A stretch of 64,000 nucleotides of DNA from an uncultured delta proteobacterium. Its GTDB lineage: Bacteria > Desulfobacterota > Desulfomonilia > UBA1062. Position numbers and translations under genes: made by a program. Each line of letters starts with the position of its first letter. Within the stretch, counting starts at the first letter, position 1. The DNA lies in NCBI GenBank assembly GCA_963752595.1, contig CAVVYZ010000009.1, forward strand, positions 64,001-128,000, in the 5' to 3' direction. This document shows positions 12,604-42,093 of the stretch, one piece after another. A model generated the notes under the pieces. It did not search any database and was not told the DNA's origin. It saw only the letters and a list, made by a program, of their open reading frames with translations.

Positions 12604-13278
12604 TTAATCTTTTTTCCTGCGGAAACCGGCAAGCCCGAGACCGGCATATGTAAAGGTCTGTGCCCCTACCACGGGAGAGAAATATGGGGTGATGGCTGCC
12701 GAATAATTCAGAGTCCCTGAAGCGAGACCGCTGTTCACGTCATAGCGGACCGGATGGTCGTCCCTGATATCCCATGTACCTGCATATGGAGCAGTCCAGA
12801 CACCCTGGTAGTTCGGCCCGTTCAAAGAATAATTGTCCCGGGCGCCGGAGAGAACATATCCCTGCTTGGTACCGGCATAATTTGAACCTATGGAGTTGGA
12901 ACCGAGGACAAATGTCCCAGGGGCAAAGGAATAAATAGTCCTTGAGCTGGTATCCACAACATAATCCCAAAAACCATCGGCCTTCAGATCGATACATAGG
13001 TCACCCGGGGTAATGGGGCCGTAATCAGCCGAATTAATATAATTGAAGGTAACGCTGTTCAGTACGCCCTCATTAACATTGACCGATCCTCCCAGGAGGT
13101 TCGGGGTACCTATAGTATCTCTTGAATTATCTGTTGTCCCCTGCGCCCAGGTACACACCCCACCGCCCCAGCCGGTCCAGTTTCCGGTGGTATCTCCGAA
13201 CCGGATTTCCAGGGAATGGGCATTGAATGCAAATAAAGCTAGAAAAACGACTGCTTGGGTAAATGTTCTCATCTTCAT
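12604..13278 (-). CDS. PEP-CTERM-like secreted protein lacking the VPEP motif
   Basis: Signal peptide; Gly/Thr/Asn-rich body; ends GLGLAGFRRKKD like a PEP-CTERM tail; divergent from prsK/prsR. Confidence 0.7.
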   Translation of the reverse strand: MKMRTFTQAVVFLALFAFNAHSLEIRFGDTTGNWTGWGGGVCTWAQGTTDNSRDTIGTPNLLGGSVNVNEGVLNSVTFNYINSADYGPITPGDLCIDLKADGFWDYVVDTSSRTIYSFAPGTFVLGSNSIGSNYAGTKQGYVLSGARDNYSLNGPNYQGVWTAPYAGTWDIRDDHPVRYDVNSGLASGTLNYSAAITPYFSPVVGAQTFTYAGLGLAGFRRKKD

Positions 13279-13312
13279 GTTGCGCTACTATGTAAAAGTA
13301 TTATCAATATAA

Positions 13313-13327
13313 GCAACAGATATACTA
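13313..13327 (-). promoter_or_regulatory. Degenerate sigma-54 -24/-12 promoter
   Basis: Minus strand reads TAGTAT-ATCTG-TTGC against consensus TGGCAC-N5-TTGC, with AG in place of the invariant GG. IHF-like TTTCAATTAGTTA at 13346-13358. Confidence 0.4.
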
Positions 13328-13378
13328 TCTTACTTTCCATTTTGATTTCAATTAGTTATGAGTATCAATGACCGGAAA

Positions 13379-13395
13379 CGTCGGTATTATTAACA
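13379..13395 (-). promoter_or_regulatory. Putative PrsR enhancer (PEP-CTERM box) 1
   Basis: Minus strand TGTTAATAATACCGACG, similar to the site at 13534. Confidence 0.45.
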
Positions 13396-13533
13396 AAATC
13401 GATCCAATATCTCTGGGGAGTGGATATTATTGTGGGTTTTCTCCCTTACGGGAATATTTTGTAAATGTAATTATCTTTATGATTTTCCTTTCTTTTTCCG
13501 ATACAACATGTGATTCATGCGAATCGGAGGCCC

Positions 13534-13550
13534 TGTAAAGTATCTCGACA
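13534..13550 (+). promoter_or_regulatory. Putative PrsR enhancer (PEP-CTERM box) 2
   Basis: TGTAAAGTATCTCGACA fits the recalled TGTAAA-N6-CGACA element found upstream of PEP-CTERM genes. Confidence 0.55.
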
Positions 13551-13596
13551 GCACGCCTCATAAATGATATAAAAATTAAAATAAAACGGCTTCTTT

Positions 13597-15672
13597 ATGG
13601 AATTATTGATATTCTCGGTGCCTGCACTGATAAGCCTTTTGGGGGGCGTGATCATTCTTGCCAGGAGTGGGGCAAGGTATGGGCGCACTATTGCGATCGG
13701 CCTCCTGTTCCTTTCTTTTACTGAAACCGCCTATGCCCTCTTTTCTCTCACAGACAGTCTGGCATTTCTGCGGATTGCATCGTTCTTCGAGGCTTCCAGC
13801 ACCGCTGCATTCCTCCTTTCAGTGACACTCATGGAAAAAGGGCTTTCCAAAAACAGAGCCCTCATAAAATGGGAGCAGTATCTGCTTTCCATTTTCTGCA
13901 TCCTGTATGGGGCTCTGGTTCTTTATCTGCCTGAACATGCGCTTTCATGGGGAATCGAGGGCGCTATCCACCTTGGGTGGATCACGAAGGTACAGTCAGT
14001 GTTTATCCTCATCAATGCGGTAATCTTCATATGGATCATGGAAAACATCCTGCGCTCCAGTACGGATGAGCAGAGACGCATCCTCAAGTATCCTGCTTTG
14101 GGCATCATTGCATTGGGGATAGCTTTTATGCTCATGGCTGTTCGCCGTCTCAGCACAATGATAGCAAGTGAAGAGATGCTCATCCTCTATTCCCTGATTT
14201 TTCTGGTGGGCATGGTCTTTGTCATCTTCTTTTCCATCCGATTCAAGCTCTTTGAGATGGATATCTTCGTGTCACGGTACATTGTCTATCACTCGCATCA
14301 CATTCCTCAGCATCGGCTCATACCTCTTGCATGGGCCTCATTATCCTCTGGATACAAAGCCTCGGCATGAGGCTTTCTTTCGTAGTGACGGGTTCTTGGT
14401 ATTCATTGCGCTTATTCTCTATCCATCCTTGTTCTTTCACCCGAGAGATGCAAAGGCGCGGCTGAAGTTCTTCATCAACACCCATTTCTTCTCCAACAAA
14501 TATGATTATCGCAAGGAATGGGGCGAGCTGAGCGGCTACCTCTCTATCGCATTCAATGAGAACCAGATCATCCATCTCACGTCTCAGGTGATCCTGGACA
14601 GCATGTACATCAACGAGCTCTCCATATGGCTGCATGGATGGCGCCTGTTTCAGCGAGCTGTTATGCATTTCCCGCATAACTCCGGCGATAAACAGATGAT
14701 CTCATGAAGAACCACTTCAGAATATTAGCTGAAGAACAATCCTTATTTCCTGCAGCAAAACTCCCAGGGCTCCCGGAGACCACCTTTGGGAAACGGTTAC
14801 AAACGGTCAGAGCCATTTTTAGATAAAAACAAGATCGAGCTCGCCGTATCCATGATGGCGGAGAATAAATGATAGGTTTTATTGCAGTGGGAAAGGAAAA
14901 TCCTGGAACACCGTATGGCCGCGACGACATCGACCTTCTCACGGCAATTGCCTCTCAGTCCAGTGCAGCCCTGATGAGCGCCCGCTATGCCCAGGAGCTG
15001 GCAGCGAACAAGGAGCTCGATGCCTATACCCGCATGTCCTCGTACGTACTCCATGACCTGAAAAATGCTGCAGGAAACCTCTCCCTGATACTTCAGAATG
15101 CGCCGAACCATATGGACAATAAGGATTTCCGCGAAGACATGCTGGATACCATTTCGCAGACTTTGAAGCGCATCGACAAGGTCATGTTCAGACTCGGCGC
15201 TATCCGCACAGAAAGCGAGCTTCCAAGAGGGTATCCACTGGAAGCATTCATTGACGGATTGCTTGCCAAGCTTTCATCCCGCCTTCAGGGTGTCTCTGTA
15301 GAAAAGTCGATCGAGACGGGGCTGGAAATAAAGACAGACATGGAAATGTTGGAGCGGGTATTGGAAAACATCATCATCAATGCCACGGAGTCGGTTTCCC
15401 ATAACGGGAAGATTCATATTCGTGCAGGCAGGAACGGACAGAAATCCTATATATCCATCATGGATGACGGAACAGGAATGACTGAGGAATTCTTGCGGGA
15501 AAAAATGTTCAAACCCTTCCAGACAACCAAGAAGAACGGTACGGGCCTTGGTCTCTGGCAGGTAAAAAACATCGTGGATCAGCTGGGCGGAACGATCAAT
15601 GTCGAGAGCAACATCGGCCAAGGCTCCCTTTTCACTATTCTTTTTCCTGATGAGTCATATTTTTTCCGATAA
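13597..15672 (+). CDS. prsK: PEP-CTERM system histidine kinase PrsK (several frameshifts at 14.3-14.85 kb)
   Basis: Multi-TM N-terminus; ARLKFFINTHFFSNKYDYRKEW; GAF-like region; YVLHDLKN H-box; FKPFQTTKKNGTGLGLWQ. Confidence 0.82.
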
Positions 15673-15725
15673 AGACGGGTGTCTCGGACGATAAACAAGA
15701 TTGCAAAACCATTGAGGAACTTAAG

Positions 15726-17080
15726 ATGAGCAAGAAGCGATATACTGATCGTGGAAGATGAATCGAGCATGGCAAAACAGCTGAAATGGGGACTTGCCGA
15801 TGCCTATGACATATCCTTGCAGCAACCGCCCCCGATGCGCTTGGACTTATCCCGAAAATCCCCCCTTGTCGTCCTGCTGGACCTGGGCCTCCCCCCGACC
15901 CGGACAGGGCAACGGAAGGGACTCAATCTCCTCAAAGAGATCGTTCATATGCCTGAAAATATTAAAGTGATCGTCATTACCGGAAACACGCGAGAAGGAT
16001 GTCGCTGCCAAGGCAGTGTGGCTCGGGCGCATATGATTATCATCAGAAGCCCGTAAATATTGAAGAGCTCAAGATCGTCCTGAAACGGGCCTGCTACCTG
16101 TCCGACCTCGAACAGCACATTACCGAACTCAGGGAGGTTATATCGGAAAAAACCCAGTTCGAGGGAATGGTCGCCATTTCCCGCTCGATGATGGACCTCT
16201 TTGAAAGGGCCAAGAGTGTTGCACGCACCGATTATCCGATCCTTATCCAGGGCCAGAGCGGAACAGGAAAGGAGCGACTTGCGCAGGCTATCCACGCCCT
16301 AAGCGACCGGGCGGAAAAGCCCTTTATCATCGTCGATTGCGGGGCAATCCCTGAAAACCTGCTGGAGAGCGAGCTCTTCGGACATGAAAAAGGCTCGTTC
16401 ACAGGCGCACACGCCCGGCAGATCGGCAAGCTGGAAAGGGCGCAACAGGGAACCGTCGTCCTGGATGAGATCGGAGAGCTGCCCGCTCCTTCTCCAGGTA
16501 AAACTCCTGAGATTCCTCCAGGAGGGGACCATCGAACGGATCGGCGGCAAGGAGCCTATCAGCGTGGATGCTCGGGTCATCGCGATCACCAATGTCGACT
16601 CTCGCGGGCGGTCAAAGAGAATCTTTTCCGGGAAGATCTTTACTACCGGCTCAACGTTGTCCCGCTGATGGTACCGACACTGAAAGAACGTCCGGAAGAT
16701 ATTCCGGTCCTGGCGAAGTATTTCCTCGAGACCTATTCGCAGGAGATCGGTCCGAAATTCAAAGGCTTCAGCCCAGAGGCCATGGATGCGATGACAAGCT
16801 ATGACTGGCCGGGAAATGTCCGCGAGATGCAGAACAGGATACGCCGCGGCGTGGTCATGGCGGAAGGGGATTTTATCGAGCCGAGCGATATCGACCTGCA
16901 GGCATCCGGCCAGGAGATCAAGACTCTCAAACAGTTACGGGATGAAGCGGAGATAAAAGCGATCAGCAGGCCCTTGCCCGGAACAATTACAACATCACGC
17001 GTGCTGCGCACGAGCTGGATATCAGCAGGCCGACCCTGCACGATCTCCTGAAAAAACACGACATCCAGATTCAGAAATGA
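15726..17080 (+). CDS. prsR: Sigma-54-dependent response regulator PrsR (several frameshifts)
   Basis: ILIVEDE; LLDLGLPP; GAYDY.QKP; GQSGTGKE; [15 protein letters not shown]; WPGNVRE; C-terminal HTH ([13 protein letters not shown]). Confidence 0.85.
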
Positions 17081-17111: not shown

Positions 17112-17351
17112 TTATGGCCGGTCAGACATAAGGGTGAGCAGATCCTCCTTCAGCGACTTGATCTGCCGGTGCTTCTCCAGATATATCTGCTCAAACCGGT
17201 CAAACCTCCTAGTGAGCTCTATAATCTCATTCTCCAGAGTCTTGATCCTCTCGGACAACGACGCGAGCCCTGACTTGGCATCGACGTCGGATGAGATATC
17301 CTCCATAAGATCGAGGAGGTCGCTCACCTTTTTCGAGGTATCAGGATCCAT
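17112..17351 (-). CDS. Small coiled-coil protein, overlapping the end of the PomX-like gene
   Basis: 79 aa intact ORF with GAGAGG SD and heptad pattern (LSERIKTLENEIIELTRRFDRFEQ). Confidence 0.65.
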   Translation of the reverse strand: MDPDTSKKVSDLLDLMEDISSDVDAKSGLASLSERIKTLENEIIELTRRFDRFEQIYLEKHRQIKSLKEDLLTLMSDRP

Positions 17352-18291
17352 ACACCTCTCGTTTGGCTTTCAGTCGGATATGGGCAAGAGAGGAATATAC
17401 CCGGTCGAGGGCATTCTTGAGCTCCATCGATTTCCTGCTCGAGGGGCTCACGCTTCTGATATTCCTCATCCAGCTTTGACTCCAGCTCAAAAACCCTGCT
17501 GTTGCTGATGGAGAGATCCCGCTCGAGGATGGATACCTTGACATCCATCTTCGCCTTTTCATGGATTTCTTTATTGAGCTTGCTGAACCGGCATTCCACG
17601 TCTGTGCGCCGGGCAGTTTCCTGCTCTATGGTAATTGTCTTTTCTTCGAGAAGGCCGACCATGTTCTGGATGTAGAGGTCGGCGTCTTCGAGCTGCTCAT
17701 TCAGAAAATCGATCTCCCTCTCGATCAAGGTGTTGTCGAGGGTGCCCTTTTCGATCTCGGCCTGATGCTTGCTTTGAGCCGTGCGTTTTCCCGCGCAACC
17801 TCTTCGACGGCGGATGAGCTCTTCTCCAGCTGCTGCTGGATCGCCTTTTTTTCAAAGATCATCTGGGTGAAATCAGAGTTGATATCCTTGATGGTCTCCA
17901 CAGCCTTTACGATGCTCTCGTTCTTCTGAAGAACAGCGCTCTGCAAAACAGGCTCGGCTTTGACCTCTCTCCGGAGTTCAATCCTGGCCGCAGGTGTGAT
18001 CTTCTGCTTATTATCAGGCCGGTCTCGATAGTGATCTCCTGCTTCTCTTCAGCAAGGGCTTCAGCCACGATTTTCGGTTTTTCTTTCCCTTTGGATTCCA
18101 CAACGATTTCCCGGGCCTCTTCGGCAGCAGGAGCTGCCGCCTCTCTCCCGGTGTTTAAGGTCTCCCGGGTTCGGCTTTTCCTCTTCCTGGGCCTTCAGCA
18201 GGACGGGATCAACATTCCATGGCCTGTTAGGCCTTTTCTTCTGTATTTTGGGCATCTTTTCAGCAACACTTCTATCGAAACCGTCTTTCAT
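17341..18291 (-). CDS. pomX: PomX-like protein (N-terminal basic peptide, low-complexity linker, long coiled coil), frameshifted
   Basis: Starts MKDGFDRSVAEKMPKI after a GAGGAG SD; fragments 17907, 17725, 17324 and 17341 form a continuous coiled coil; downstream of a PomZ-like ATPase. Confidence 0.6.
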
Positions 18292-18387
18292 ACACATTTT
18301 CTCCTCAGGTCATTATAGCCGCATCTTTAACGGTCATTTCCATTATGGTCATTACGTGGTGGAATGATAAATAAATCATAAATCTCC

Positions 18388-19346
18388 TTAAAAGGCAATC
18401 GGCAGGTTGGGATAAATTTCTTTGATGAACGAATTGATGTCCACGGCACCGCGGTTGTTCGGCGCATACTGGTGGATGGGCATTCCCATGCTCGCCGCCT
18501 CGGCAATCTTTGTATCCTGCCTGATGATGGTCTTCATGAGATATCCACTGTAGTGCTTCTCCAGAGCATCCTTTGACCTCAGGCAGATATTGTGGGATGC
18601 ATTGAAATGGTTCAGGAAGATATAGATGTTATCCAGCAGAAAGTCGAAGTCCTCTTCTATGGTGGTGAGGGTCTCGAAGAGGATCTTGAGCCCATGGTAG
18701 GAGAGAAAGTCCGCCAGGACAGGGACGAAGAGTTCATTGCTCGCCAGGATGCCGTTCAGGTTCAGGAGCCCTATGGAGGGAGAAGCATCCATGATGATGA
18801 TGTCATAATCGTCCTGGATGAGCGCCAGACCTTTCTTCAGCCGCAGCTCGCGGGCATTCATGGAGGTCAGGGACAGCTCGACGGGAGAGAGATCAAGGTT
18901 CGCGGGGATGAGCTTGAGGTTCTTCATCTTGGTATTGAGATCACATCATGGATATCCATCCGCTCGATGAGGACATTGTAGAGCGTGGCATCAAACGAGC
19001 TGTGGTCGATCCCGAGGCACTGGGTGAGATGTCCCTGGGGGTCGAGGTCGATCATGAGTACATTCATGCCGAGCTGGGCGAGCCGGAAGGCGTAAAATGC
19101 CGAAACACTCGTCTTCCCTGTTCCCCCTTTGAAATTCAGGAAGATCTGCCTGCGCTTGGTGGAAACAAGCGGCGGCTTCCCGAGGGCATGCAGGTACGCA
19201 GGATTTCATGGGGTGCATACACCCGTATTCCGTCAGCCATCTGGGGTTGCGGCAGCGTTCCTTCTGTCTCCATCTTGAGCAGCGCAGCCTTTGAGATCCC
19301 GAGCAGAGAGGCAAATTCTTTGGCTGTATACAGCTGGCTGCTCCAT
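18388..19346 (-). CDS. pomZ: PomZ-like ParA/MinD ATPase with N-terminal HTH-like extension, frameshifted
   Basis: Reconstructed frames: LYTAKEFASLLGIS...RRQIFLNFKGGTGKTS...IDLDPQGHLTQCLG...GLLNLNGILASNELFVPVLADFLSYHGLKILFET...TIIRQDTKIAEA. Confidence 0.8.
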
Positions 19347-19361
19347 CTTATATCCTTTCTC

Positions 19362-20021
19362 TCATGAGTTCCCACCAGCCTTGCCACTTTGCAATGATCC
19401 ATTCGAATTCGTCATCCGAAGCGCCGCATCGGCTCGCCGAAATCCTCTCCGGTGAGCCTCTTCAATGTCCTGATTGCCTGCATCCTGACATCGAACGTGC
19501 TGTCCTCCAGCGCCTTGATCACATGCTGGATCTTCTTCCTTACTACCCCATATCCCCACCAGCCGCAGACGCATCCTTTCTCACCATGGGATCAGGATCC
19601 TCAAGGGCGAGTACGGACTACGGCCTCCAGAGCTGATTTGTCATTGATCCAGAAGAGATAGCTGATGACCCTCCTGCGGACATACGGATCGCTGTCGCCA
19701 AGCCATCGTGATGCCGTCTTCAATGGTAAATGCCCCTCCTGAACAGATAGCGGATGGCCGAGCCGCCTCACCTTGGGGTCGGGAGCTTTCGGATGCGGCA
19801 CGGAAAACGGATGAGAAATCGTTTTCGTCATCGAACAGGATGTCATAGAGACCGTAGCCGTCGGCCTTGTCGGCATCTTTCAGAATGGATGCAATGAGCT
19901 CACCGGAACAGGAAGCGTCCTTGAGGAGCGCCTTGGCTGCCAATTTCTTGATTTCAGGGTCGCTGTCTTTCAGATCAACTGAGATCTGGTCCAAACCTAC
20001 CCGTTTCAAGAACCCCTCCAT
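19362..20021 (-). CDS. HEAT-repeat protein (PomY-like, short), frameshifted
   Basis: Repeats LKDSDPEIKKLAAKAL, PDPKVRR, LGDSDPYVRRRVISYL; first gene of the operon before pomZ. Confidence 0.6.
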
Positions 20022-20036
20022 TTTCTTTGAGTGGCA

Positions 20037-20066
20037 AGTATAAAGGGTAATGGAAGCGGGAGTCAA
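20037..20066 (-). promoter_or_regulatory. Sigma-70 promoter of the pom-like operon
   Basis: TTGACT-N18-TATACT on the minus strand. Confidence 0.6.
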
Positions 20067-22351: not shown

Positions 22352-22444
22352 TGGCGGAGAGAGAGGGATTCGAACCCTCGGTAGAGCTTATGACCCTACA
22401 TTCGCTTAGCAGGCGAACGCCTTCGTCCACTCGGCCATCTCTCC
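22352..22444 (-). tRNA. tRNA-Ser(GCT)
   Basis: GGAGAGATGGCCGAGTGG...TTCGC-CTGCTAA-GCGAA...long variable arm...GGTTCGAATCC...CCGCCA. Confidence 0.96.
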
Positions 22445-22450
22445 AGCCCT

Positions 22451-22538
22451 TGGCGGAGGGAGCAGGATTCGAACCCGCGGTACCTTACGGTACAACGGTT
22501 TTCAAGACCGCCGCCTTCAACCACTCGGCCATCCCTCC
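22451..22538 (-). tRNA. tRNA-Ser(TGA)
   Basis: GGAGGGATGGCCGAGTGG...GCGGT-CTTGAAA-ACCGT...long variable arm...GGTTCGAATCC...CCGCCA. Confidence 0.96.
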
Positions 22539-22553
22539 GGTGCGACTATCTCA

Positions 22554-23828
22554 TTAACTGATTGGTGTAATGAGGTCAAGCCTCATGTAAGGCTTCAAAA
22601 CCTCCGGCACCATAACGGTCCCGTCCTCTTTCTGATAGTTCTCGAGGATTGCAGCCAGGGTCCTGCCCACGGCGAGGCCGCTACCGTTTAAGGTATGGCA
22701 GAGCTCTGTCTTCTTTGCCTGTTTCGATTTGTAGCGGATCTGGCCCCTGCGTGCCTGGAAGTCTTCGAAATTGCTGCAGGAAGAGATCTCCCGGTAGACC
22801 CCCTGGGCGGGCATCCAGACCTCCAGGTCATAGGTCTTAGAGGAAGAGAATCCGAGATCGCCCGTGCACAGGCACACGACCCGGTAATGGAGCCCAAGCT
22901 TCTTGAGAATGTCCTCGGCTTCGTTCGTGAGCTCTTCCAGGTCCGTGTACGACCTGTCGGGATGCGCAAACCTCACGAGTTCCACCTTGTTGAACTGGTG
23001 AAGCCTGATGAGACCCCTTGTGTCCTTGCCGTAGGAGCCGGCCTCCCTCCTGAAGCAGGGGGTATAGGATACGAGCTTTACGGGCAGATCTTCTTCATTG
23101 AGGGTTTCGGACCGGTAGAGATTGGTTACCGGTACCTCGGCAGTGGGCACCAGGAAATAGTCGTTGTTGGTCGCGAAGAGTTCCTCTTCGAACTTCGGGA
23201 GCTGTCCCGTTGCGGTCATACTCTCCCGGTTCACCATGAAAGGAGTCAGAACCTCTTTGCAGCCGTGCTCTCTGGTGTGGACATCGAGCATCAGATTAAT
23301 GATAGCCCTTTCCATAAGAGCCCCCGTGCCCCAGTTGATAGCAAAGCGTGCCCCGGTGATCTTTGCTGCGCGTTTGAAATCGAGAATACCGAGCCCTTCT
23401 CCGATATCCCAGTGATCCTTGGGGGTAAAGGAAAACTCCGGCTTCACGCCCCACGATCGAACTATCGCATTATCACTCGAATCCCTGCCCACCGGGACGC
23501 TTTCATGGGGAATGTTGGGAATCTCCATGATGAACCGGTTCATGGCCTCTTCCACTCCCCTGATCTCGCCGTCAATGGATTTGATCCTTTCGGACATCGA
23601 GCGCATCTCGTTCTTTTCCGCTTCGAGACCCGTGCCGGAAGATTTCTCCTTGGCGATGCGGGAAGAGAACTGGTTCCGTTTTGCCTTGAGGTCGTCGGCC
23701 TCCTGGATGAGAGCCCTCCTTTTTGTGTCCTGATCGAGGAGAAAATCAAGCCCCAGACTCGAACCGCGATTCTCAAGCGCCCTTTTTACCAAGTTGATGT
23801 TTTGCCTGATGGTTTTTATGTCTAGCAT
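22554..23828 (-). CDS. serS: Seryl-tRNA synthetase
   Basis: MLDIK; [12 protein letters not shown]; TGQLPKF; PTAEVP; [21 protein letters not shown]; EISSCSN; [11 protein letters not shown]. Confidence 0.98.
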
Positions 23829-31905: not shown

Positions 31906-33053
31906 CTATTCCTGAATCAGCCAAAGCATGGGGTCCAGAGCCTTCTGGTGAAACCGTACTTCGAAATGGAGTGTGGGTTTGAGAACGCTCCCGCTCTGCC
32001 CTACCCGTGCAATAACCTCCAAAGGAGCCATCTTCTGACCGACTGATTTGGCAGTGTTCTGGAGATGCCCGTATACCGAGTAATACCCGTCTCCGTGATC
32101 TATGATGACGGTGTTCCCATATTTCTCGATCCAGTTGATATATACCACTGTCCCGGCAAAAATGCACCTGACCGGCGCTCCCTCCTGGGTCTCGATATCT
32201 ATCCCTTGAGATTTCTGGAGCACCCCGCCAAGCGTGAACGGTCCGAAACCGCGCATGATCCTGCCTTTCAAAGGCCAGGATAGTTTCCCCTTGTGGATGA
32301 AAAAATCGCCGCTGGAGAGTACAGGCTCCTGAACTTTCTCCTTCTTACCCTTCTTTTCTTTCTTCTTTTTGTCTTTCAGGGACTTTTCCCTCTCCCGCTT
32401 TTCCCTTTCTTTTTTCTCTCTTCCTTCCTCTGGATCTCCTTGAGAAGGTCTTCCACCTGATCCTGATACATCTTCGATTCACTTTTCAGGGAGGAAATGA
32501 GATTCTCTTTTTTCCTTCTCTCCCTTTCAAGATCTTTGGCACTGCCCTGAAGCTCGCTCAGATCCTCATTGAGAAGTACGGCAAGTTCATTGGCCTTCCT
32601 TCTTGTCTCCCCGATGCCTTGCTTAAGCTTCTGATATTCCTGGAGTAGTCCCATATGATGCCTCATCACTGCATTGAGGTATCCGGAATATTTTTCATGA
32701 CCATAATAGATGCTCACCATATCGAGAGAAGCGCTCTTGTAGAGGGTGACCCACTCCTGGCGAATCCTTGCCTGCGCTTTCTCCAGATCGTTCTCATAGA
32801 CACTCATCTTCTTATCGAATGAGGCAATCTGCATCTGTTTTTTTTCGATACTCCCCTTCACCCTCACTGTCCTGTCCTGGATCCTCGATATCTCCTCGTC
32901 CATATATCTGAGCTTCTTCTCTTCGGAAAGATATACTCCCTCGACTTCCTTGGCCTTCCTGGTCAACTCCTTGAGCTTTACGAACGGATCGTCGACTGCC
33001 CTCGTAACGAGGGGGCTCAAGAGGAAGAGGATTGAGAACAGGATTCTACCCAT
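31906..33053 (-). CDS. envC: Murein hydrolase activator EnvC / M23 family (frameshift in Lys-rich linker near 32376)
   Basis: Signal peptide plus coiled coil (32376..33053); M23 domain GIDI...YGNTVIIDHG...LHFEVR (31906..32271). Confidence 0.85.
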
Positions 33054-33924
33054 CGATGCTTTGCTTGATTGCGAGATGTGCTCCGAGAAGGCTCAAAAGG
33101 CACGAGAAAGCAACAATGGAGACACTCTCCCTGAAAGGCAGCACGGTAAGGATTCCCTGAAGGACCGGTGCACGTGAAGTAATCGAGATTACGGCCCATT
33201 CGGTGAAGGCAAGCGCTGCCAGCGCTCCTCCCACCCCATAGGCGAGGGCTTCCATGAGATAGGGTGCGTAGAGGAATGAGGTTTGCGCCCCGAGGAGGTT
33301 GAGGACCTCTATTTCCTCCCGTCTCGAAACGATGCTGACACGGATGGAAAGGAATACGACAAGCGAGAGCGATACGATGACGATCAGCGCGATTACCCCT
33401 CCTGAAATGAGAATAGACTGGTATGCATCGGCAATATACCCCAGAATGCCTTTGTCATACCGGACATCTTCTACACCCGAAATCCCGTGTACCCTTTGTG
33501 CTATTCCTTCTATCTTTCCTGCATAGAAGGGCTTTACCGTGATCTCAAACGCATCGGGAAGGACATTTGGATCGAGGCCTTCTATCAGGGGGTTATCCGA
33601 TCCCATCCACTGCTTCAGACGGTCAAGGCCTCCCTGCCTGGGAATGAAGACAACGCCCTGGACCTCATCCATGACCGAGATCTTTGCCTTGATCCCATCG
33701 ATAACTCGGTCCTGCCGGGCTCCTGCCACGTACGCAATCATGGTACTCGTAGTACCACGGAGCGTCTTCACCTGCTTTGCGATCACGACCGTATGAAGGA
33801 CAAGGATGAGCTGGCACAGCGCAAACCACCACGCTATGAAGGTGAAGAGGCTGCCCAATGGCCTCCTGCGTATCCCCCTGAACAGCAGTTTAAGGATATA
33901 AAGGCTTCTGATCATGGAGCTCAC
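33046..33924 (-). CDS. ftsX: Cell division permease FtsX
   Basis: 4-TM topology; NVLPDAFEI; RREEIEVLNLLGA; lies between ftsE and envC. Confidence 0.88.
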   Translation of the reverse strand: MSSMIRSLYILKLLFRGIRRRPLGSLFTFIAWWFALCQLILVLHTVVIAKQVKTLRGTTSTMIAYVAGARQDRVIDGIKAKISVMDEVQGVVFIPRQGGLDRLKQWMGSDNPLIEGLDPNVLPDAFEITVKPFYAGKIEGIAQRVHGISGVEDVRYDKGILGYIADAYQSILISGGVIALIVIVSLSLVVFLSIRVSIVSRREEIEVLNLLGAQTSFLYAPYLMEALAYGVGGALAALAFTEWAVISITSRAPVLQGILTVLPFRESVSIVAFSCLLSLLGAHLAIKQSIDG

Positions 33925-34574
33925 CTTTTTGCGATCATGCCTTTTTCAAGGGTGATGATCCGGGCGAAATCTATGAGGGGGTCCTCTCGGTGGCTTGCTA
34001 TGAGCATGGTTATTCCCTTCTTGTGGAGCTTGTAGAACATGTTCATGACGTGCCGTGCAGTTGTTTCGTCAAGGCTGCCGACCGGCTCGTCTGCCAGTAG
34101 AACGTCCGGGTCGTGGATGATTGCCCTGATTATTGACAGGAGCTGTTTTTCTCCCCCCGAAAGGTCTCCGGCCCGTTCATAAATCTTGTGCTGAAGCCCG
34201 ACCCATTTGAGCATCTGCCAGACACGGTTTCTGATGTACCCGGCAGATTTTCCCAGGATCTCCAGGATGACTGCGGCGTTATCATAAACGGTCCAGTCTT
34301 CTATGAGGCGGTAGTCCTGGAATACAAAGCCCATATGCCTCCTGAGAGCCTGGATTCCGGATCTGCTCATTCCGGCGATGTACCTGTCGTGGAGAGATAC
34401 TTTCCCGTTCGTAGGCTCGTCAAGGGCATAGATCATCTTCAGGAGGGTCGTCTTGCCTGCCCCTGAAGGGCCGAGGATAAAACAGCACTCGCCCTTCGGG
34501 ATCTGAAAAGAAACGTCCCGGAGTGCGGTTACATTATCGTGGTAGGTTTTCGTTACCCCTTCAAGAACTATCAT
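33921..34574 (-). CDS. ftsE: Cell division ATP-binding protein FtsE
   Basis: GPSGAGKTT; VFQDYRL; LSGGEKQ; LLADEP. Confidence 0.9.
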   Translation of the reverse strand: MIVLEGVTKTYHDNVTALRDVSFQIPKGECCFILGPSGAGKTTLLKMIYALDEPTNGKVSLHDRYIAGMSRSGIQALRRHMGFVFQDYRLIEDWTVYDNAAVILEILGKSAGYIRNRVWQMLKWVGLQHKIYERAGDLSGGEKQLLSIIRAIIHDPDVLLADEPVGSLDETTARHVMNMFYKLHKKGITMLIASHREDPLIDFARIITLEKGMIAKR

Positions 34575-34633
34575 CTCGTATCCGAATTCTTTCTTGCCTG
34601 ATTCTTGTCTTTGCGCGCCGGGACAGCCCCAGG

Positions 34634-35062
34634 TTACGAGAATCTCTGCTTGATCTCGATGAGGAGATCGATGTCGGCGGAAAGATAGTCGATGCTCTTG
34701 GCAAGGGATGGATGCTCTCCTGCAAGAGAGGCTGCTTCGATCATCAGGTACCGCAGTTCCATGATCTCCTTGTCTAGCAGTCCCAGCACCCTTGCTACCT
34801 GGGCGTCTGCCAGTTCGACCGTCTCCTCGGGGAGATGATGCTCGTCGCACTTGGATGCTTTCTCTTTCGGCCCGATCATCCCGAGCAGGACATCCGGAGA
34901 TATCTCAAGGGCGCCGGAGATCTTGTCTATGACCTTTCTGCTCGGTCTCTTCGGCGGGGTACACTCGTAGAGTGAAATAGTCTTAGATGAAACACCGCTT
35001 TTATCGGCAAGCTGTTCCATGGTCAATCCCTTCGATTTTCGAATACTTCGCAAATCGCTCAC
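34634..35062 (-). CDS. XRE-family HTH transcriptional regulator
   Basis: LRSIRKSKGLTMEQLADKSGVSSKTISLYE; helical C-terminus; GGAGG SD. Confidence 0.85.
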   Translation of the reverse strand: MSDLRSIRKSKGLTMEQLADKSGVSSKTISLYECTPPKRPSRKVIDKISGALEISPDVLLGMIGPKEKASKCDEHHLPEETVELADAQVARVLGLLDKEIMELRYLMIEAASLAGEHPSLAKSIDYLSADIDLLIEIKQRFS

Positions 35063-35172
35063 TTCATACCCCTCCTGTGAATGGTATCATCGATTACCCG
35101 TGTCGCATTATTATCCCATTTTGCCTGTTACACAATACCCTTTTCTCACCACTCTCCCAACCTCCAGACTAT

Positions 35173-35187
35173 TGGTATGGTTTTCGC
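35173..35187 (+). promoter_or_regulatory. Sigma-54 promoter of the flhB operon
   Basis: TGGTATGGTTTTCGC with GG and GC at correct -24/-12 spacing, 12 nt before the flhB ATG. Confidence 0.6.
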
Positions 35188-35199
35188 AAGCTATCCCCC

Positions 35200-36276
35200 A
35201 TGGCCAAGGAGAATGACAGCGGTCAAGAGCGAAGCGAACAACCGAGCGGCAAGCGATTACAAGAATCCAGAGATAAAGGACAAGTCAGCAAAAGCGTTGA
35301 AGTTTCAACGTGTTTTCTCTTCATAGCAACAGTGATCTCCTTTTATTTCTATATCCCTTCGGTGGCATCGCGGCTCAGCCGCGTCATGAGCTACTATCTT
35401 GGTAATACAGAAATGTGGGACGGCACCCGCGACTCGCTGGTTACGCTCTTCAGCCAGGCGGTATTCCAGCTCGGCATTATGCTGCTGCCCATCCTGGCAG
35501 TTTTCCTTGCAGTCGGGATAGCGTCAAATATCCTGCAGATCGGTTTTGTCTTCAGCGGCGAAACCCTGATCCCCAAGTTCTCCAAACTCAACCCGATCAC
35601 CGGGTTCAAAAACAAGTTTTTTTCTGTGAGAAGCTTGGAAATGCTTATTAAAAACGTTGTTATTATATCCGTCATCGGATGGGTCGGCTACCGGGCGATC
35701 AAACGGGAAATCGCAATTTTTCCCCCGCTCATGAGCAGCGAGGTATCCGTCATAGTATTGACATTATTCCAGTCGTCAATGCGCCTCCTCTGGGATTTCC
35801 TCTGGATTTTCGTCATTATCGCGCTCGCAGACTATGTCTATCAGAAATGGCAGCACACCCAGGACCTGATGATGTCCAAACAGGAAGTAAAGGAAGAACA
35901 CAAGCAAACCGAGGGCAACCCAATCATCAAGAGCAGGATACGATCCATCCAGATCCATATGGCCAGGAGGAGGATGATGAAGGAAGTGCCGAAAGCAGAC
36001 GTCATCATCACCAACCCGACCCATCTGGCAATCGCCCTGAAATACGAGAGGGGCAAGATGATAGCGCCAGTGGTCCTTGCAAAAGGCGCAGGAATCCTTG
36101 CGGAGAAGATCAAGGAAATAGCCCGGTCATCCCGCATATCTATAGTCGAAGACAAACCATTGGCACAGGCCTTGTATAAAACCGTAGAGATCGGGGATGC
36201 TATCCCCGAGGAGTGGTACAGAGCAGTGGCGGAAATTTTGGCATATGTCTACAGGTTGAAAGCAGGTGTGAGATAA
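35200..36276 (+). CDS. flhB: Flagellar export protein FlhB
   Basis: ERSEQPSGKRL...GQVSKS; EGNPIIKSRIR; NPTH autocleavage motif. Confidence 0.97.
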   Translation: MAKENDSGQERSEQPSGKRLQESRDKGQVSKSVEVSTCFLFIATVISFYFYIPSVASRLSRVMSYYLGNTEMWDGTRDSLVTLFSQAVFQLGIMLLPILAVFLAVGIASNILQIGFVFSGETLIPKFSKLNPITGFKNKFFSVRSLEMLIKNVVIISVIGWVGYRAIKREIAIFPPLMSSEVSVIVLTLFQSSMRLLWDFLWIFVIIALADYVYQKWQHTQDLMMSKQEVKEEHKQTEGNPIIKSRIRSIQIHMARRRMMKEVPKADVIITNPTHLAIALKYERGKMIAPVVLAKGAGILAEKIKEIARSSRISIVEDKPLAQALYKTVEIGDAIPEEWYRAVAEILAYVYRLKAGVR

Positions 36277-38346
36277 ATGGCAGCAAGAGAAACCCTCCCC
36301 TTCGACATGGATCATAATGTCTTGAGCGACATTGTGATGGCTGTCGGCGTCCTCCTCGTTCTGGTAATCGTCCTCATCCCCCTCCCCACCTTTATCCTCG
36401 ACGTGCTGCTCACCTTCAGCATCACCCTGGGGATAATCATCCTCATGGTGAGCATGTATACAACCAATCCCTTGAATTTTTCCGTTTTCCCGTCTCTGCT
36501 CCTGGTCGTTACACTCTTCCGGCTAGCGCTCAATATCGCATCAACGAGGCTGATACTCTTAAACGGCTCCGAAGGCGAACTTGCTGCAGGAAAGGTGATC
36601 CATGCCTTCGGCCAATTCGTGGTCGGCGGAAGTTATGTCGTAGGCTTCGTGGTTTTCTCCATCTTCGTCATCATCAATTTTGTCGTTATCACCAAGGGTG
36701 CAACCCGCATCGGCGAGGTTACCGCACGGTTCACCCTGGATGCCATGCCGGGCAAGCAGATGGCTATCGATGCAGACCTCAACGCAGGAATGATCACGGA
36801 AATCCAAGCACGCGACCGGAGAGATCTTATCCAGAGAGAGGCCGAGTTTTACGGGGCAATGGACGGTGCCACCAAGTTCGTGCGGGGAGATGCCATTGCA
36901 GGGATCATCATCGTTTTCGTCAACATCATGGGCGGGATCATCATAGGCGTCCTCCAGCACAAGATGGCCTTTGCCGAAGCCTTGACCACATACACCACAC
37001 TGACCATCGGCGACGGTCTCATCTCCCAGATACCGGCCCTTGTCATCTCTTCTGCAGCCGGCATCATCGTGACCCAGTCCGCAGCGGATAAATCCATCGG
37101 CAAGCTGCTCTCAGAGCAACTCGCATTCCAGCCCCTGGCGTTATTCTCCGCATCAGGAATCATCTTCTTACTCGGACTCGTTCCCGGAATGCCGCATATC
37201 CCGTTCCTGTCCATGGCAGCTATCATGGGCGGCATTGCATGGATAAGCCTCCGGTTTAAAAAGGATGAGGAGGTTAAGGAAGAGGCCCCGCAGGAAGAAG
37301 AGGCCTCTGCAGAGGTACTCCTCACAACAGATGTCCTGGAATTCGAAATCGGATACGGGCTCATCCCCATGGTGGATACGTCCTCGGGCGGTGAACTTTT
37401 GACGCGTATCAAGGGAATGCGACGAACGATTGCCGCTGAGCTCGGGGTCATTGTTCCCCCTATCCATGTCAGGGACAACCTGGACCTCAAGCCCAACGAA
37501 TACAAGCTCATGCTCAAGGGTTCCGATATCGCACGATCTGAAGCCATGGTTGACAGGCTGATGCTGCTGAATCCCGAAGAGGTCAAGATCGATATCCCCG
37601 GCATTCCGGTCAAAGAGCCTGCCTTCGGGCTGCCGGGCCTGTGGATCAAAAAGGCCGACAGCGAGAGAGCTCAGCTTGCCGGTCTTACCGTAGTCGATCC
37701 GTCAACGGTTATCGCGACCCACCTTACCGAGGCTATCAAGAGCAATTCCCATGAACTCCTCGGCAGGCAGGAACTCCAGGCAATCCTGGATACGGTATCG
37801 CGGTCCCACCCGAAGGTTGTAGATGACCTCATCCCTGCTACGCTCCCCGCGGGTACGGTATTACGGGTGCTCAAGAACCTCCTGAAAGAGAAGGTCTCCA
37901 TCAAGAATATCCTCACCATATTCGAGACACTGGCAGATTTCGGTCCTGTAACGAAAGATCCCGACATTTTGACGGAGTACGTCAGACAAGCCCTCATGAG
38001 GATCATCTCGAAACCATATATTCAGAACAACACGATCAAGGTGCTGGCTCTGGATCCCGCTATAGACGGAATGATATCGCACTCGATCCAGCATACGGAA
38101 CATGGCTCGTATCTTGCACTAGAACCAGAGAAATCTAACAAGATTCTCATGACTTTGAACAAGGAGGTCAACAGCGTGGGCAAGCAGGGACTGGTTCCGA
38201 TCTTACTGACATCACCGGTAAGCAGGGCATATATGAAGCGACTCACCGAGCGCTATATGCCCGACCTCGTGGTCCTGTCCCATAATGAGATCCCCCCTGA
38301 CATAACCATAAAAAACCTCGGAATGGTAAGGGTCGATGCAAATTAA
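36277..38346 (+). CDS. flhA: Flagellar export protein FlhA
   Basis: ARFTLDAMPGKQMAIDADL; FYGAMDGA.KFVRGDAIAG. Confidence 0.98.
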   Translation: MAARETLPFDMDHNVLSDIVMAVGVLLVLVIVLIPLPTFILDVLLTFSITLGIIILMVSMYTTNPLNFSVFPSLLLVVTLFRLALNIASTRLILLNGSEGELAAGKVIHAFGQFVVGGSYVVGFVVFSIFVIINFVVITKGATRIGEVTARFTLDAMPGKQMAIDADLNAGMITEIQARDRRDLIQREAEFYGAMDGATKFVRGDAIAGIIIVFVNIMGGIIIGVLQHKMAFAEALTTYTTLTIGDGLISQIPALVISSAAGIIVTQSAADKSIGKLLSEQLAFQPLALFSASGIIFLLGLVPGMPHIPFLSMAAIMGGIAWISLRFKKDEEVKEEAPQEEEASAEVLLTTDVLEFEIGYGLIPMVDTSSGGELLTRIKGMRRTIAAELGVIVPPIHVRDNLDLKPNEYKLMLKGSDIARSEAMVDRLMLLNPEEVKIDIPGIPVKEPAFGLPGLWIKKADSERAQLAGLTVVDPSTVIATHLTEAIKSNSHELLGRQELQAILDTVSRSHPKVVDDLIPATLPAGTVLRVLKNLLKEKVSIKNILTIFETLADFGPVTKDPDILTEYVRQALMRIISKPYIQNNTIKVLALDPAIDGMISHSIQHTEHGSYLALEPEKSNKILMTLNKEVNSVGKQGLVPILLTSPVSRAYMKRLTERYMPDLVVLSHNEIPPDITIKNLGMVRVDAN

Positions 38347-39403
38347 AACATACACTGCAAGCTCCATGAAGGACATCCTCTCCCGGATCAAGAGTGAGCT
38401 GGGTTCTGATGCAGTGATCCTCTCCAAGCGCGAGATCGCTGACACGAATTTCGGTCTGGCGGCAAAAACCATGATCGAGGTCACTGCCGCTGTGGACTAT
38501 GACGCCGGCGCCCACGAGAAAATGGCGAAAACGGAAGATATTTCCGCTTTAAGGAAGTTTCCCATAAACAGTTCGTCCCAGCCCGATGCCCTTTCAAACG
38601 AGATCATCGAGCTAAAAGAAATGATGAAGGAGCTGATAGCCCATACAGGGGTTTCGCTCCACAACGGCAACCCCGTGAGGAAGAAGCTCGTATCCCAGGG
38701 AATCAGGCCCAATCTTGCAGATCTCTTGCTCTCCAAGATAGGCCAGGGGGCGAATGAGCACTCGGTCAAGGATCTCCTGGGCAAGATCATCCAAACGGAT
38801 AGACCTGTCGGGAACAAGGTATGGGCCTTCGTGGGAACAACCGGAGTAGGTAAGACCACGACAATCGCCAAGATCGCTGCCCGATGCGTGCTCAACGAGA
38901 ATAAGAAGGCCGGGCTTATCACTCTGGATACCTACCGGATCGGCGCCATTGACCAGGGAAGGATCTACGCCAAGATACTGAATATTCCCTTCCTGTCCGT
39001 CACAACGGCATCGGAGTTCAGGACGGCGCTCGCGAAGCTCGAGTCCATGTCCATGGATCTGATCCTTGTGGATACGGTAGGAAGATCGCCCTTGTGCAGA
39101 GACTACATCCCTCAGCTCAAGCAGTATTTCGGCGGGATCAACCCATGCACCTTCCTGCTCATGCCGGTAGCTACAAGGGATACCGAGATGGATACCATAA
39201 CCAAATCTTTCTCGGAACTGAATATCGACCGTATGATATTCACCAAGGTCGATGAGGCAATACATTCAGGATCAATCATTACCCATAATCTTCTCTACAG
39301 GATCCCCATCTCGTTCCTCACCACTGGCCAGAGGGTTCCGGAAGATATCGAGGAAGCGTCTGCGTCAACGATCACAGAAAGATGTCTCGGAGATATATCA
39401 TGA
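38336..39403 (+). CDS. flhF: Flagellar GTPase FlhF
   Basis: ELGSDAVIL; GTTGVGKTTTIAK; DTYRIGA; TKVDE; GQRVPEDI. Confidence 0.95.
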   Translation: MQIKTYTASSMKDILSRIKSELGSDAVILSKREIADTNFGLAAKTMIEVTAAVDYDAGAHEKMAKTEDISALRKFPINSSSQPDALSNEIIELKEMMKELIAHTGVSLHNGNPVRKKLVSQGIRPNLADLLLSKIGQGANEHSVKDLLGKIIQTDRPVGNKVWAFVGTTGVGKTTTIAKIAARCVLNENKKAGLITLDTYRIGAIDQGRIYAKILNIPFLSVTTASEFRTALAKLESMSMDLILVDTVGRSPLCRDYIPQLKQYFGGINPCTFLLMPVATRDTEMDTITKSFSELNIDRMIFTKVDEAIHSGSIITHNLLYRIPISFLTTGQRVPEDIEEASASTITERCLGDIS

Positions 39404-40302
39404 AAGATCAAGCACATACATTAAGGAGGATCTTCGAGGGAGGCGGCAGCCAGAACTACCCGCAAGTGCTGTCGGTCACTTCGGGAAAAGGGGGCGTCGG
39501 GAAAACGAGCATCGTCGTCAATATGGCCATCATTCTCGCCTCAAAGGGGAAAAAGGTCCTCGTCCTCGATGCAGATTTAGGGCTTGCCAATATCGATGTC
39601 ATGCTCGGCCTCGCACCGAAGTACAATATACAGCATGTCCTGGAGGGGCAGTGCCTCCTGGAAGACATCATCCTGGAAGGACCCAAGGGGATCAAGATCA
39701 TCCCGGCTTCATCGGGCATCCAGGAGCTTGTGGATCTCACCCCCGAACAGCAGATCTGCCTGATGAACTCTCTGGATTATTTCGACCAGGATATCGACTA
39801 CATGATCATCGATACAGGCGCAGGGATCTCGAAGAACGTCATGTACTTCAATACCGCGGCGCAGCGGATTCTCGTCGTGTGCACCGGGGAGCCGACCTCC
39901 ATTACCGATGCATACGCGCTCATCAAGGTTTTGAGAAAGCAATACGGGGTCAAGCACTTTGACCTCATCGTGAATAACATTTCTTCCAAAGTGGAAGGAG
40001 ACCAAGTGGCAAGGCAGTTAACTTTGGTATGTGAGAGGTTTTTAGGGGATGTTGCCCTTGAAGTACTCGGATCCATTCCAACGGACAAAAGCATTCCCGA
40101 GTGCATCAAAGGGCAAAAGGCATTTGTCGGAGTCCATCCGAACGGGGAGGCAGCGGTCCGTCTGGAGAGAATCGTGAGCCGCCTTGAACACACATCGCGA
40201 GACTCGAACAGCGGGAATCTTCAATTTTTCCTCCGCAGGATGTTACTCAACCAAGTGAAGGGGTCGAACCATGCAGGACATAGCATTTCCGGATCTTACT
40301 GA
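39400..40302 (+). CDS. flhG: Flagellar number regulator FlhG/FleN
   Basis: DQA N-terminal motif; SGKGGVGKT; DADLGLAN; EPTSITDAYALIK. Confidence 0.95.
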   Translation: MKDQAHTLRRIFEGGGSQNYPQVLSVTSGKGGVGKTSIVVNMAIILASKGKKVLVLDADLGLANIDVMLGLAPKYNIQHVLEGQCLLEDIILEGPKGIKIIPASSGIQELVDLTPEQQICLMNSLDYFDQDIDYMIIDTGAGISKNVMYFNTAAQRILVVCTGEPTSITDAYALIKVLRKQYGVKHFDLIVNNISSKVEGDQVARQLTLVCERFLGDVALEVLGSIPTDKSIPECIKGQKAFVGVHPNGEAAVRLERIVSRLEHTSRDSNSGNLQFFLRRMLLNQVKGSNHAGHSISGSY

Positions 40303-41041
40303 AGAACAGAAACTCAACCCGAAGGTCAGGGCAAAGGTGATCAACGAGTTCTCACCGTTGATCAAGTACATAGCCAGCCGCATAGCGATCCGGCTTCCCC
40401 CTCACATCGACCTGAACGATCTCATCAACGCAGGGGTGATAGGGCTCATCGACGCCATCGAGAAATTCGATGCCTCAAAGCAGATCAAGTTCAAGACCTA
40501 TGCGGAGTTCAGGATCCGCGGCGCAATACTCGATGAATTGCGCTCCATGGATTGGGTGCCAAGGTCGGTGAGGCAGAAGGCCCGCAAGGTGGAAGACGCC
40601 TATGCAAGGCTCGAATATGCCCTTGGCCGGCCTGCAAAAGACGAAGAGGTGGCCAACGAGATGAAGATCGATATCGACAGTTTCCACAAGCTCCTTTCGG
40701 AAACGGCATCGGTATCGCTCCTGAGCCTGGACGACCTTGGCGAAGATGATTCCGACGTCTCAAAGAGAAACCTCCTGGAGTTCATCCTTCAGGATGAAAA
40801 GGAATGGCCCTCGCATAAGCTCAGATATGCGGAAGTCCGGGAAATAGTTGCCAAGGGGATCCTCTCGCTGCCGGAAAAGGAGCGGATGGTTATCTCATTG
40901 TATTATTACGACGAGCTGACCATGAAGGAGATTGGCCATGTGCTTAAATTTACTGAATCAAGGGTCTCCCAGATTCATACCAAGGCAGTCTTGAGGCTCA
41001 GATCAAAGATGCAGAAGCTTTTTAAAGAGATCAAGGCGTAA
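40271..41041 (+). CDS. fliA: Flagellar sigma factor sigma-28
   Basis: [21 protein letters not shown]; [13 protein letters not shown]; ESRVSQIH. Confidence 0.97.
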
Positions 41042-41091
41042 AGATTTACGCGCGATTGTTCGATTATGTGAAAAAGACCCTGGAGGCAACT

Positions 41092-41475
41092 ATGGCGGTT
41101 GATAAAAATATGAAAATCCTTGTTGTTGATGATTTCTCAACGATGCGCCGGATTGTGAAAAACATCTTGAGACAGCTGAACTTCAATAACATCATTGAAG
41201 CCGACGACGGGTCCACTGCCCTCGATACTCTCCAGAGGGAGAAGATCGACATGGTAGTCTCCGACTGGAACATGCCGAAAATGACGGGATTGGAACTCCT
41301 CAAGGCCATCCGGTCGGACGATGCCCTGAAAGACATCCCCTTTCTTATGGTAACGGCAGAGGCCCAACAGGAGAATATCATCGAGGCGGTGAAGTCAGGG
41401 GTGAGCAATTATATCGTGAAACCTTTTACCGCCGAGACGCTCGGCCAGAAAATAAACCAGATCTTCAGCAAGTAG
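41092..41475 (+). CDS. cheY: Chemotaxis response regulator CheY
   Basis: [16 protein letters not shown]; SDWNMPKM; VTAEA; YIVKPF. Confidence 0.96.
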
Positions 41476-41484
41476 GGGGGAAAC

Positions 41485-42093
41485 GTGTCGGATCATCCCG
41501 GGAAAAAAGCCGAGCTCGACAAAGATGGTATTGCCTATGATTTCGGCAAGGCGGAGCTCGACAGAGACGGCGTGTCTCTTTCCGATGAACCCGGGGCCGA
41601 AGAACCCATACAGGAGGAAACGAAGCAGATCTCTTCAACGGAAACATCCAAACCCGCCTCCAAGCGTCGCCCGATACTCATCGCATCAATCGCATCAGGG
41701 CTCGTGATCGTGCTCGTCTCCATGGGCGTTCTCACCTATCATCTGACAAAAAAACCGCATGTGGATATTCCCATAAGCTATAAAAAACCCGCTCCTTCCC
41801 CCGCATTGGATTCACGAGAGGGAGATATTCTTCTTGATCCTTTCATGGTGCTCTATAATTCCCGCAAGCCCAAGGAGTCCGGCGTACTGCTCGCCCAGCT
41901 CAGCCTGCAGGCAAACCCGGAAACCGCATATAATATCGGCAGTAGGATGTATGAGATCAGGAACCTCATTTTTCAGAGACTCTCATCGAACGCCGACGTT
42001 TATTCAAAAGAAGAAATTGCTGCAATCATCCGTGATGATCTGAAATCACTCAATGTCAACAATGTCGTTTTTGTGGAATTCGATAAGAGGTGA
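41485..42093 (+). CDS. FliL-like membrane protein
   Basis: Acidic N-terminus, single TM, LDPFMV...EIRNLIF C-domain; flagellar context. Confidence 0.6.
   Translation: MSDHPGKKAELDKDGIAYDFGKAELDRDGVSLSDEPGAEEPIQEETKQISSTETSKPASKRRPILIASIASGLVIVLVSMGVLTYHLTKKPHVDIPISYKKPAPSPALDSREGDILLDPFMVLYNSRKPKESGVLLAQLSLQANPETAYNIGSRMYEIRNLIFQRLSSNADVYSKEEIAAIIRDDLKSLNVNNVVFVEFDKR

Follow-up and report, generated by a model that had tools for sequence, protein, structure and literature searches.

A reduced PomXYZ-like operon in an uncultured delta proteobacterium is a candidate marker of the division site

The DNA analysed in this study (the window) comprises 64,000 nucleotides of contig CAVVYZ010000009.1, from the assembly of an uncultured delta proteobacterium (GCA_963752595.1). 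Its minus strand carries an operon of four genes, which encode a HEAT-repeat protein, a ParA-type ATPase, a coiled-coil protein with a PomX-like N-terminus and a small single-helix protein of 79 amino acids (aa). The operon is proposed to be a reduced relative of the PomXYZ system, which in Myxococcus xanthus marks the division site, and to mark the division site as well; a probability of roughly 0.6 was assigned to this reading.

Gene order, promoter and reading frames

Coordinates of the genes were corrected by aligning the window to its closest relative, locus L001 (84% DNA identity), in which the operon is intact, encodes proteins of 218, 319, 316 and 79 aa, and has the flanking genes seen in the window. 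In a six-frame translation of the window itself, fragments of the operon are scattered over shifting frames of the minus strand, and the translation bore out the first-pass annotation in placing the HEAT gene first, the ATPase gene second, the coiled-coil gene third and the small coiled-coil gene last. The two ATPase motifs quoted there were also located on this strand, RRQIFLNFKGGTGKTS near position 19150 and LFVPVLADFLSYHGLKILFET near position 18730.

Comparison with L001 identified 17 frame-changing insertions or deletions (indels) in the operon, 10 in the HEAT gene, three in the ATPase gene, four in the PomX-like gene and none in the 79-aa gene, and similar indels were found in neighbouring genes, including 12 in a sigma-54 regulator gene and one in a priA-like gene. 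No stop codon in the operon was created by substitution relative to L001, amino-acid identity was 80-92%, and third codon positions dominated the changes (113 of 139 in the ATPase gene). A short-read contig that is approximately 97% alike lacked the extra base at all three of the HEAT-gene frameshifts that it covers (one contig, depth 4.8). Judged from these comparisons, the frameshifts most probably arose as errors of the assembly, and the earlier suggestion that frameshifts had hidden the genes held up.

The longest fragment of the ATPase served as query against species genomes; this yielded 101 relatives, of which the best 80 were kept as loci, including group A (the 47 closest, to which the window belongs) and group B (33, L048-L080). 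The window's own genome is referred to as G000. A scan for the sigma-70-type promoter pattern returned three matches, one of them ahead of the HEAT gene, compared to 2.3 expected by chance, and the scan alone is therefore uninformative; however, the pattern is kept at the equivalent position in 41 of the 46 group-A loci having upstream DNA. A conserved sigma-70-type promoter is thus predicted ahead of the HEAT gene, as had been proposed. Position 20066 is the first base of its -35 box and does not correspond to a gene start.

Table 1. Features of the operon, numbered by position in the window
Feature	Position	Strand	Remarks
HEAT-repeat gene	19348..20009	minus	~218 aa; TTG start after GGAGG; ~10 single-base indels in the assembly
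PomZ-orthologue ATPase gene	18388..19346	minus	319 aa; N-terminal helix-turn-helix (HTH)-like extension, deviant Walker A; 3 indels
PomX-like gene	17341..18291	minus	~316 aa; peptide, Glu/Ala-rich variable linker, ~190-aa coiled coil; 4 frame-changing indels
PomX-NPEP-like peptide, residues 1-17	18241..18291	minus	in register with M. xanthus PomX
79-aa single-helix gene	17112..17351	minus	intact; 11-nt overlap with the stop of the PomX-like gene
Sigma-70-type promoter-like site TTGACT-N18-TATACT	20037..20066	minus	divergent from the priA-like gene

The ATPase and its partner proteins

Pfam searches with the intact L001 proteins detected HEAT_2 (119 bits) in the first protein and AAA_31 (160 bits) in the ATPase, together with a weak HTH_17 match at the N-terminus of the ATPase, which agrees with the HTH-like extension noted in the first pass. 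Twenty-four PomZ residues are named by number in the accessible text of a preprint (bioRxiv 10.1101/2025.12.01.691545). Fourteen of these 24 are identical in the L001 ATPase at a single ungapped offset, compared to at most four at 14 other offsets tried, and the remaining ones are mostly conservative changes. The genome's own ParA has six of the 24, and 128 lower-ranked representatives have 6.6 on average, with the top scorers among them being PomZ fragments. M. xanthus PomZ was not among the compared sequences, and PomZ of Archangium violaceum (P0394), which has 23 of the 24 residues at offset 0, was used as a stand-in; it is 48% identical to the L001 ATPase, with an ungapped ATPase core. Identity to 11 myxobacterial-type PomZ proteins was 45-49%, and the proteins are colinear. 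Equivalents of K61, G62, K66 and D90 are conserved in all 80 loci and that of the DNA-binding residue K268 in 78, and most residues of both predicted activator pockets, including the alpha5 pocket, are conserved across the 80 loci.

Two phylogenetic trees were constructed, one with 109 rows in quick mode and one with 40 of those rows, from which long branches and redundant rows had been dropped and which holds no plasmid ParA rows. In the 40-row tree, PomZ-type proteins were split from Soj/ParA at 100/100. The group of the window (100/100), its sister, group B, and myxobacterial PomZ (95/99) each formed a branch of their own, in an order that the tree left unresolved, and the ATPase of the window is therefore not nested among myxobacterial copies. 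Grouping the ATPase with the genome's own ParA was rejected by the approximately unbiased (AU) test (p=3e-5), and the closest plasmid match was 35% identical. The top ESM Atlas clusters for the ATPase carry automatic PomZ names, although the first may be the protein's own cluster. On sequence grounds, the ATPase is orthologous to PomZ and is neither Soj nor a plasmid ParA, a grouping that would have refuted the first-pass reading. Neither parB nor parS was found adjacent to the operon, as had been stated: the 64-kb window holds no parS-like site, and the only ParB_N match in the genome lies on another contig, beside its own parA, this separate parA-parB pair being accompanied by a parS-like site.

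The gene order equals the pomY-pomZ-pomX (Y-Z-X) order of myxobacteria, which was recovered in a set of 80 myxobacterial-type PomZ loci from metagenomes; the activator peptide of PomX was found in 52 of these 80. This N-terminal peptide (NPEP) is described as conserved and positively charged in the accessible part of a published study (PMC7993993). The third protein of the operon matches it without offset at M1, K2, F5, V9, P14, a basic residue at position 15 and a hydrophobic residue at position 16. Position 15 (R15 in PomX) is K or R in all 42 PomX-like N-termini. With a profile built solely from 25 distinct myxobacterial-type PomX N-termini, the peptide ranked third among 111,780 Met-started 17-mers in the genome, and hhalign aligned the peptide region in register over residues 1-16 (E 4e-5). 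The peptide is followed by a conserved RPWNVDP motif, a Glu/Ala-rich linker of 36-139 residues (measured in 36 of the 42 proteins), and a coiled coil that spans 163 residues between its end anchors, compared to 167 in PomX, with similar end motifs. Only generic coiled coils were returned for this protein by the ESM Atlas. The protein is putatively linked to PomX by its N-terminal peptide and its overall architecture rather than by homology of the coiled coil.

A profile of the HEAT family of the operon aligned end-to-end with the HEAT block of PomY (187 columns, E 6e-12, compared to 0.5 for a reversed control). When genomes were searched with a PomY-HEAT profile, the gene adjacent to pomZ contained the best segment in three of five genomes of the host family and in five of five group-B genomes, and a HEAT open reading frame (ORF) is located directly upstream of pomZ in 46/46 group-A and 33/33 group-B upstream ORFs. 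The HEAT protein of the operon lacks the N-terminal coiled coil, the disordered region, alpha5 and the C-terminal gD domain of PomY. The absence of alpha5 weighs less, because alpha5 is patchy even in myxobacteria (one pattern match and one by eye among 41 PomY proteins). A 643-aa HEAT gene at 42142-44073 of the window was considered as an alternative PomY and rejected; it had a higher total score than the gene in the operon but lies beside cheR in a chemotaxis cluster, and it was not matched by the coiled-coil and gD profiles of PomY.

The 79-aa protein is predicted to form one long helix (predicted local distance difference test score, pLDDT, 91), and its N-terminal 24 residues are conserved. 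No specific known family was found among its matches, and a survey of 7,993 candidates revealed no longer or fused form, a result of little weight. It did not match the PomY coiled coil, gD or the 110-aa protein of group B. Weak ZapB matches were obtained for 6 of 26 members of its family among many generic coiled-coil matches, and its identification as ZapB was rejected, as the best ZapB match in the genome is another gene, on contig C1. The conserved helix has a hydrophobic spacing like that of alpha5, which is a lead rather than an assignment because any amphipathic helix would fit.

Distribution, host and neighbouring genes

The ATPase is single-copy in all 43 genomes of the host family and was found in 19 of 401 genomes of the phylum. 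Among 55 genomes of the sister family there was one weak match (37% identity), a full-length ATPase in a 10-Mb genome (G457:C3:2383822-2384775) that may be a deeper-branching PomZ-like protein. Further ATPases of the PomZ clade lie outside the studied groups (P0122, P0124, P0125, P0127, P0128, P0131 and P0132); one of them is recorded from Candidatus Riflebacteria and three have long N-terminal extensions (414-584 aa).

Synteny of the genes flanking the ATPase, which the first-pass annotation had left to be surveyed, was observed in all related loci that are long enough, with a single exception in which the extra small gene is missing. Within group A, the HEAT gene was present in 46 loci, the coiled-coil gene in 43 and the small gene in 41, the misses being contig ends. 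In 40 of the 47 group-A loci, the operon and the priA-like gene are divergently oriented, an arrangement seen in none of the 33 group-B loci. The group-B operon consists of an RHH_3 (ribbon-helix-helix, RHH) gene and genes for HEAT, PomZ, a 110-aa protein and a coiled-coil protein of approximately 270 aa (e.g. L057:4441-7758), with the RHH_3 gene directly upstream in most loci. The latter two proteins both start with an activator-like peptide, the 110-aa one weakly, and the N-terminus of the PomX-like protein in the window merges motifs of both. No RHH gene adjoins the operon in group A, and weak RHH_3 matches were detected elsewhere in 6 of 30 genomes. A gene for a B12-binding radical SAM protein with a C-terminal STAS domain follows the group-B operon in the locus scanned for it (L048:7768-9528), and other group-B loci often have a similar gene there, as judged by size and place.

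The genome of the window (4.1 Mb, ~53% GC, 84% complete) contains flagellar export genes and four glycyl-radical (Gly_radical) domains, consistent with the flagellated, glycyl-radical-enzyme-bearing host that had been described. The host is probably a member of the Desulfomonilia and probably anaerobic; its non-myxobacterial appearance is supported in that four of the 47 closest loci, the labels of which are inconsistent (Deltaproteobacteria, Syntrophaceae, Thermodesulfobacteriota, Bacteriovoracaceae), are labelled Desulfomonilia and none myxobacterial. Myxococcota labels in the tree output, attached to records named Deltaproteobacteria, were interpreted as an effect of rank mapping. FtsZ was found in G000 and in five of five tested genomes. 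The check for minCDE suggested in the first pass detected MinC in 0 of 43 family genomes and no MinE in G000.

Other genes of the window include a glycyl-radical enzyme gene (27-2003), which accounts for one of the four Gly_radical matches, and, at 12604-17080, a gene for a secreted protein with a PEP-CTERM-like tail beside genes for a membrane histidine kinase and a sigma-54 regulator, both frameshifted in the assembly. Two tRNA-Ser genes lie directly downstream of a serS-like gene (22352-23828). At 33046-45828, an ftsX/ftsE-like pair is located next to flhB, flhA, flhF and a gene for an FlhG-type ATPase, and this region also encodes a FliA-type sigma factor, the 643-aa HEAT protein, an HDOD protein and CheR. 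The names priA and serS, as well as PrsK/PrsR, which the kinase and the regulator presumably resemble, are putative and based on sequence motifs.

Explanations for the operon and comparison with known systems

The ATPase with its partners is likely to carry out nucleoid-guided positioning of some cluster, and the division site is the probable cargo, which is the less certain part of the two. By analogy with M. xanthus, ATP-bound PomZ dimers would coat the nucleoid, and the PomX-like protein would self-assemble via its coiled coil and display its peptides on the flexible linker, so that peptide-stimulated ATP hydrolysis would bias the movement of the cluster to midcell. The HEAT protein might bind this scaffold as an adaptor, although this step is weaker. 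The least certain step is the last one, in which FtsZ might be recruited without a PomY condensate or, alternatively, the co-translated 79-aa helix might supply the function of the PomY coiled coil in trans. A more tentative proposal is that the operon represents an ancestral, condensate-free Pom system in which the HEAT adaptor and the 79-aa helix share the jobs of PomY, which myxobacteria later fused and to which they added phase separation. If so, the 79-aa helix may recruit FtsZ or, via its invariant N-terminal helix, may act as a second PomZ activator; the sister lineage would use two PomX-type peptides.

Several results weigh against a division-site Pom system. The HEAT proteins of group A score no better against PomY (median 39 bits) than an unrelated HEAT protein (41 bits), while those of group B score clearly higher (median 60 bits); the HEAT score is non-specific in group A, and the case for PomY orthology is therefore built on position and size and on group B as an intermediate. 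Profiles of the PomY coiled coil and of gD each matched in 0 of 19 PomZ-bearing genomes, in searches that included no positive-control genome. According to one study (PMC10307791), condensate formation by M. xanthus PomY requires its coiled coil, which by itself suffices for it, and a PomY variant lacking this part failed to colocalise with constrictions; the coiled coil is probably needed for FtsZ recruitment in M. xanthus. In the activator peptide, K13 of PomX, which is needed for activation, is Met in all 42 PomX-like proteins, each of which has K or R at position 12. The coiled coil scored no higher against the C-terminal part of PomX (PomX-C) than its reversed sequence did; the PomX-C profile did not recover the PomX-like coiled coil in 19 genomes, its sole match in G000 being weak (E 0.044) and not relied on. 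No fts gene is located inside the operon. The absence of MinC carries little weight, as 356 of 401 genomes of the phylum have neither MinC nor a PomZ-type ATPase; mutual exclusion of MinC and PomZ (0/19 overlap) was not counted as support for the same reason. Of the minimal Pom system proposed in the first-pass annotation, the PomZ assignment, gene order and synteny stand, and none of the three outcomes named there as refutations (an ATPase of Soj or plasmid ParA type, lack of synteny in relatives, a myxobacterial genome) was observed. Its PomY stands as a HEAT block in the PomY position and not as a protein with the condensate-forming coiled coil, and its PomX stands by peptide and architecture and not by coiled-coil homology.

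The missing PomY parts that are tied to FtsZ recruitment are also what would be expected if a PomZ/PomX-type motor served another cargo, for example the flagellar pole, a secretion apparatus or an uncharacterised complex, with the HEAT and 79-aa proteins as cargo adaptors and FtsZ recruitment arising later with the myxobacterial PomY coiled coil. ParA/MinD ATPases position many cargos, and FliG, found in 41 of 43 family genomes, makes a flagellar cargo possible in the host family. However, the flagellar cluster of the genome already encodes FlhF and an FlhG-type ATPase, only two of five group-B genomes with the operon yielded FliG (not found in the other three), none of the 43 family genomes yielded bacterial microcompartment (BMC) shells, and chemoreceptors, present in 39 of 43, were not found in four that keep PomZ. 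A different cargo is regarded as unlikely, though it is the strongest competitor to the division-site reading.

It is less probable still that the operon acts on the chromosome, by organising the nucleoid, supporting segregation or controlling cell-cycle genes, with the HTH of the ATPase and the RHH gene upstream in the sister lineage serving that role. The weak HTH_17 and RepA-like matches at the N-terminus, the RHH_3 gene of group B and the divergent priA-like gene of group A are consistent with such a function, but myxobacterial PomZ likewise has an N-terminal extension, parA and parB, together with a parS-like site, are present separately in the genome, and neither link is shared, the RHH gene not adjoining the operon in group A and the priA-like gene not doing so in group B. 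That the genes are pseudogenes in decay, or that an orphan ParA resembles Pom because it happens to lie beside generic HEAT and coiled-coil genes, is highly improbable. The indels in three genes and the generic nature of the HEAT and coiled-coil matches by themselves could be read in this way; nevertheless, decay is contradicted by the pattern of substitutions relative to L001, by the similar indels in the neighbouring regulator gene and by the short-read contig, and chance by the residue fingerprint and the peptide rank, which are specific to Pom, and by the 40-row tree and the AU test, on which chance pairing was rejected.

PomXYZ is described as conserved in myxobacteria in the accessible text of two reports (PMC7993993, bioRxiv 10.1101/2025.12.01.691545), and no report of Pom outside myxobacteria was found in the searched literature (including the accessible text of PMC4672049, PMC11271474 and PMC11407121), which did not extend to preprint supplements and older studies. 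Within that literature, a PomZ-centred reduced operon outside myxobacteria is new, with the provision that its PomY-like gene fails two defining features of PomY. FtsZ recruitment is tied to the PomY condensate in the Myxococcus literature, and the operon described here would be a core, single-copy version without those parts. A whole family of uncultured anaerobes may thus offer a natural deletion experiment, in which the condensate-forming and second-activator parts are absent, and with which it can be tested whether positive Z-ring placement needs phase separation and which parts make up a minimal module for nucleoid-guided positioning. The operon is also a candidate division-site system for lineages without detected MinC, and all four proteins are small and expressible from the intact relative.

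The ATPase resembles ParA/Soj and plasmid type Ia ParA/RepA proteins in its deviant Walker A fold and, as in RepA/SopA, its HTH-like N-terminus; it differs from them in its low identity to plasmid proteins (<=35%), its separate clade and the lack of parB/parS nearby, and all of its scores against NCBIfam models were far below the cut-offs. The 79-aa protein is similar to ZapB in size and in being all-helical, but its matches are generic and the genome's best ZapB match is elsewhere. Compared to M. xanthus, the operon encodes an extra 79-aa protein and is found in a flagellated, probably anaerobic host of Desulfomonilia type; its first protein is a HEAT-only protein of 218 aa, compared to 682 aa for PomY; and its PomX-like protein has a Glu/Ala-rich rather than Pro/Ala-rich linker, Met in place of K13, the additional RPWNVDP motif and a coiled coil without detectable homology. 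Conversely, the operon shares with M. xanthus PomXYZ the Y-Z-X order, a HEAT block of equal size, a PomX-like protein in which a peptide is followed by a variable linker and then by a coiled coil of equal length, and a PomZ that is colinear with its 45-49% identical myxobacterial-type counterparts and keeps the catalytic, dimerisation and DNA-binding residues and most residues of the activator pockets.

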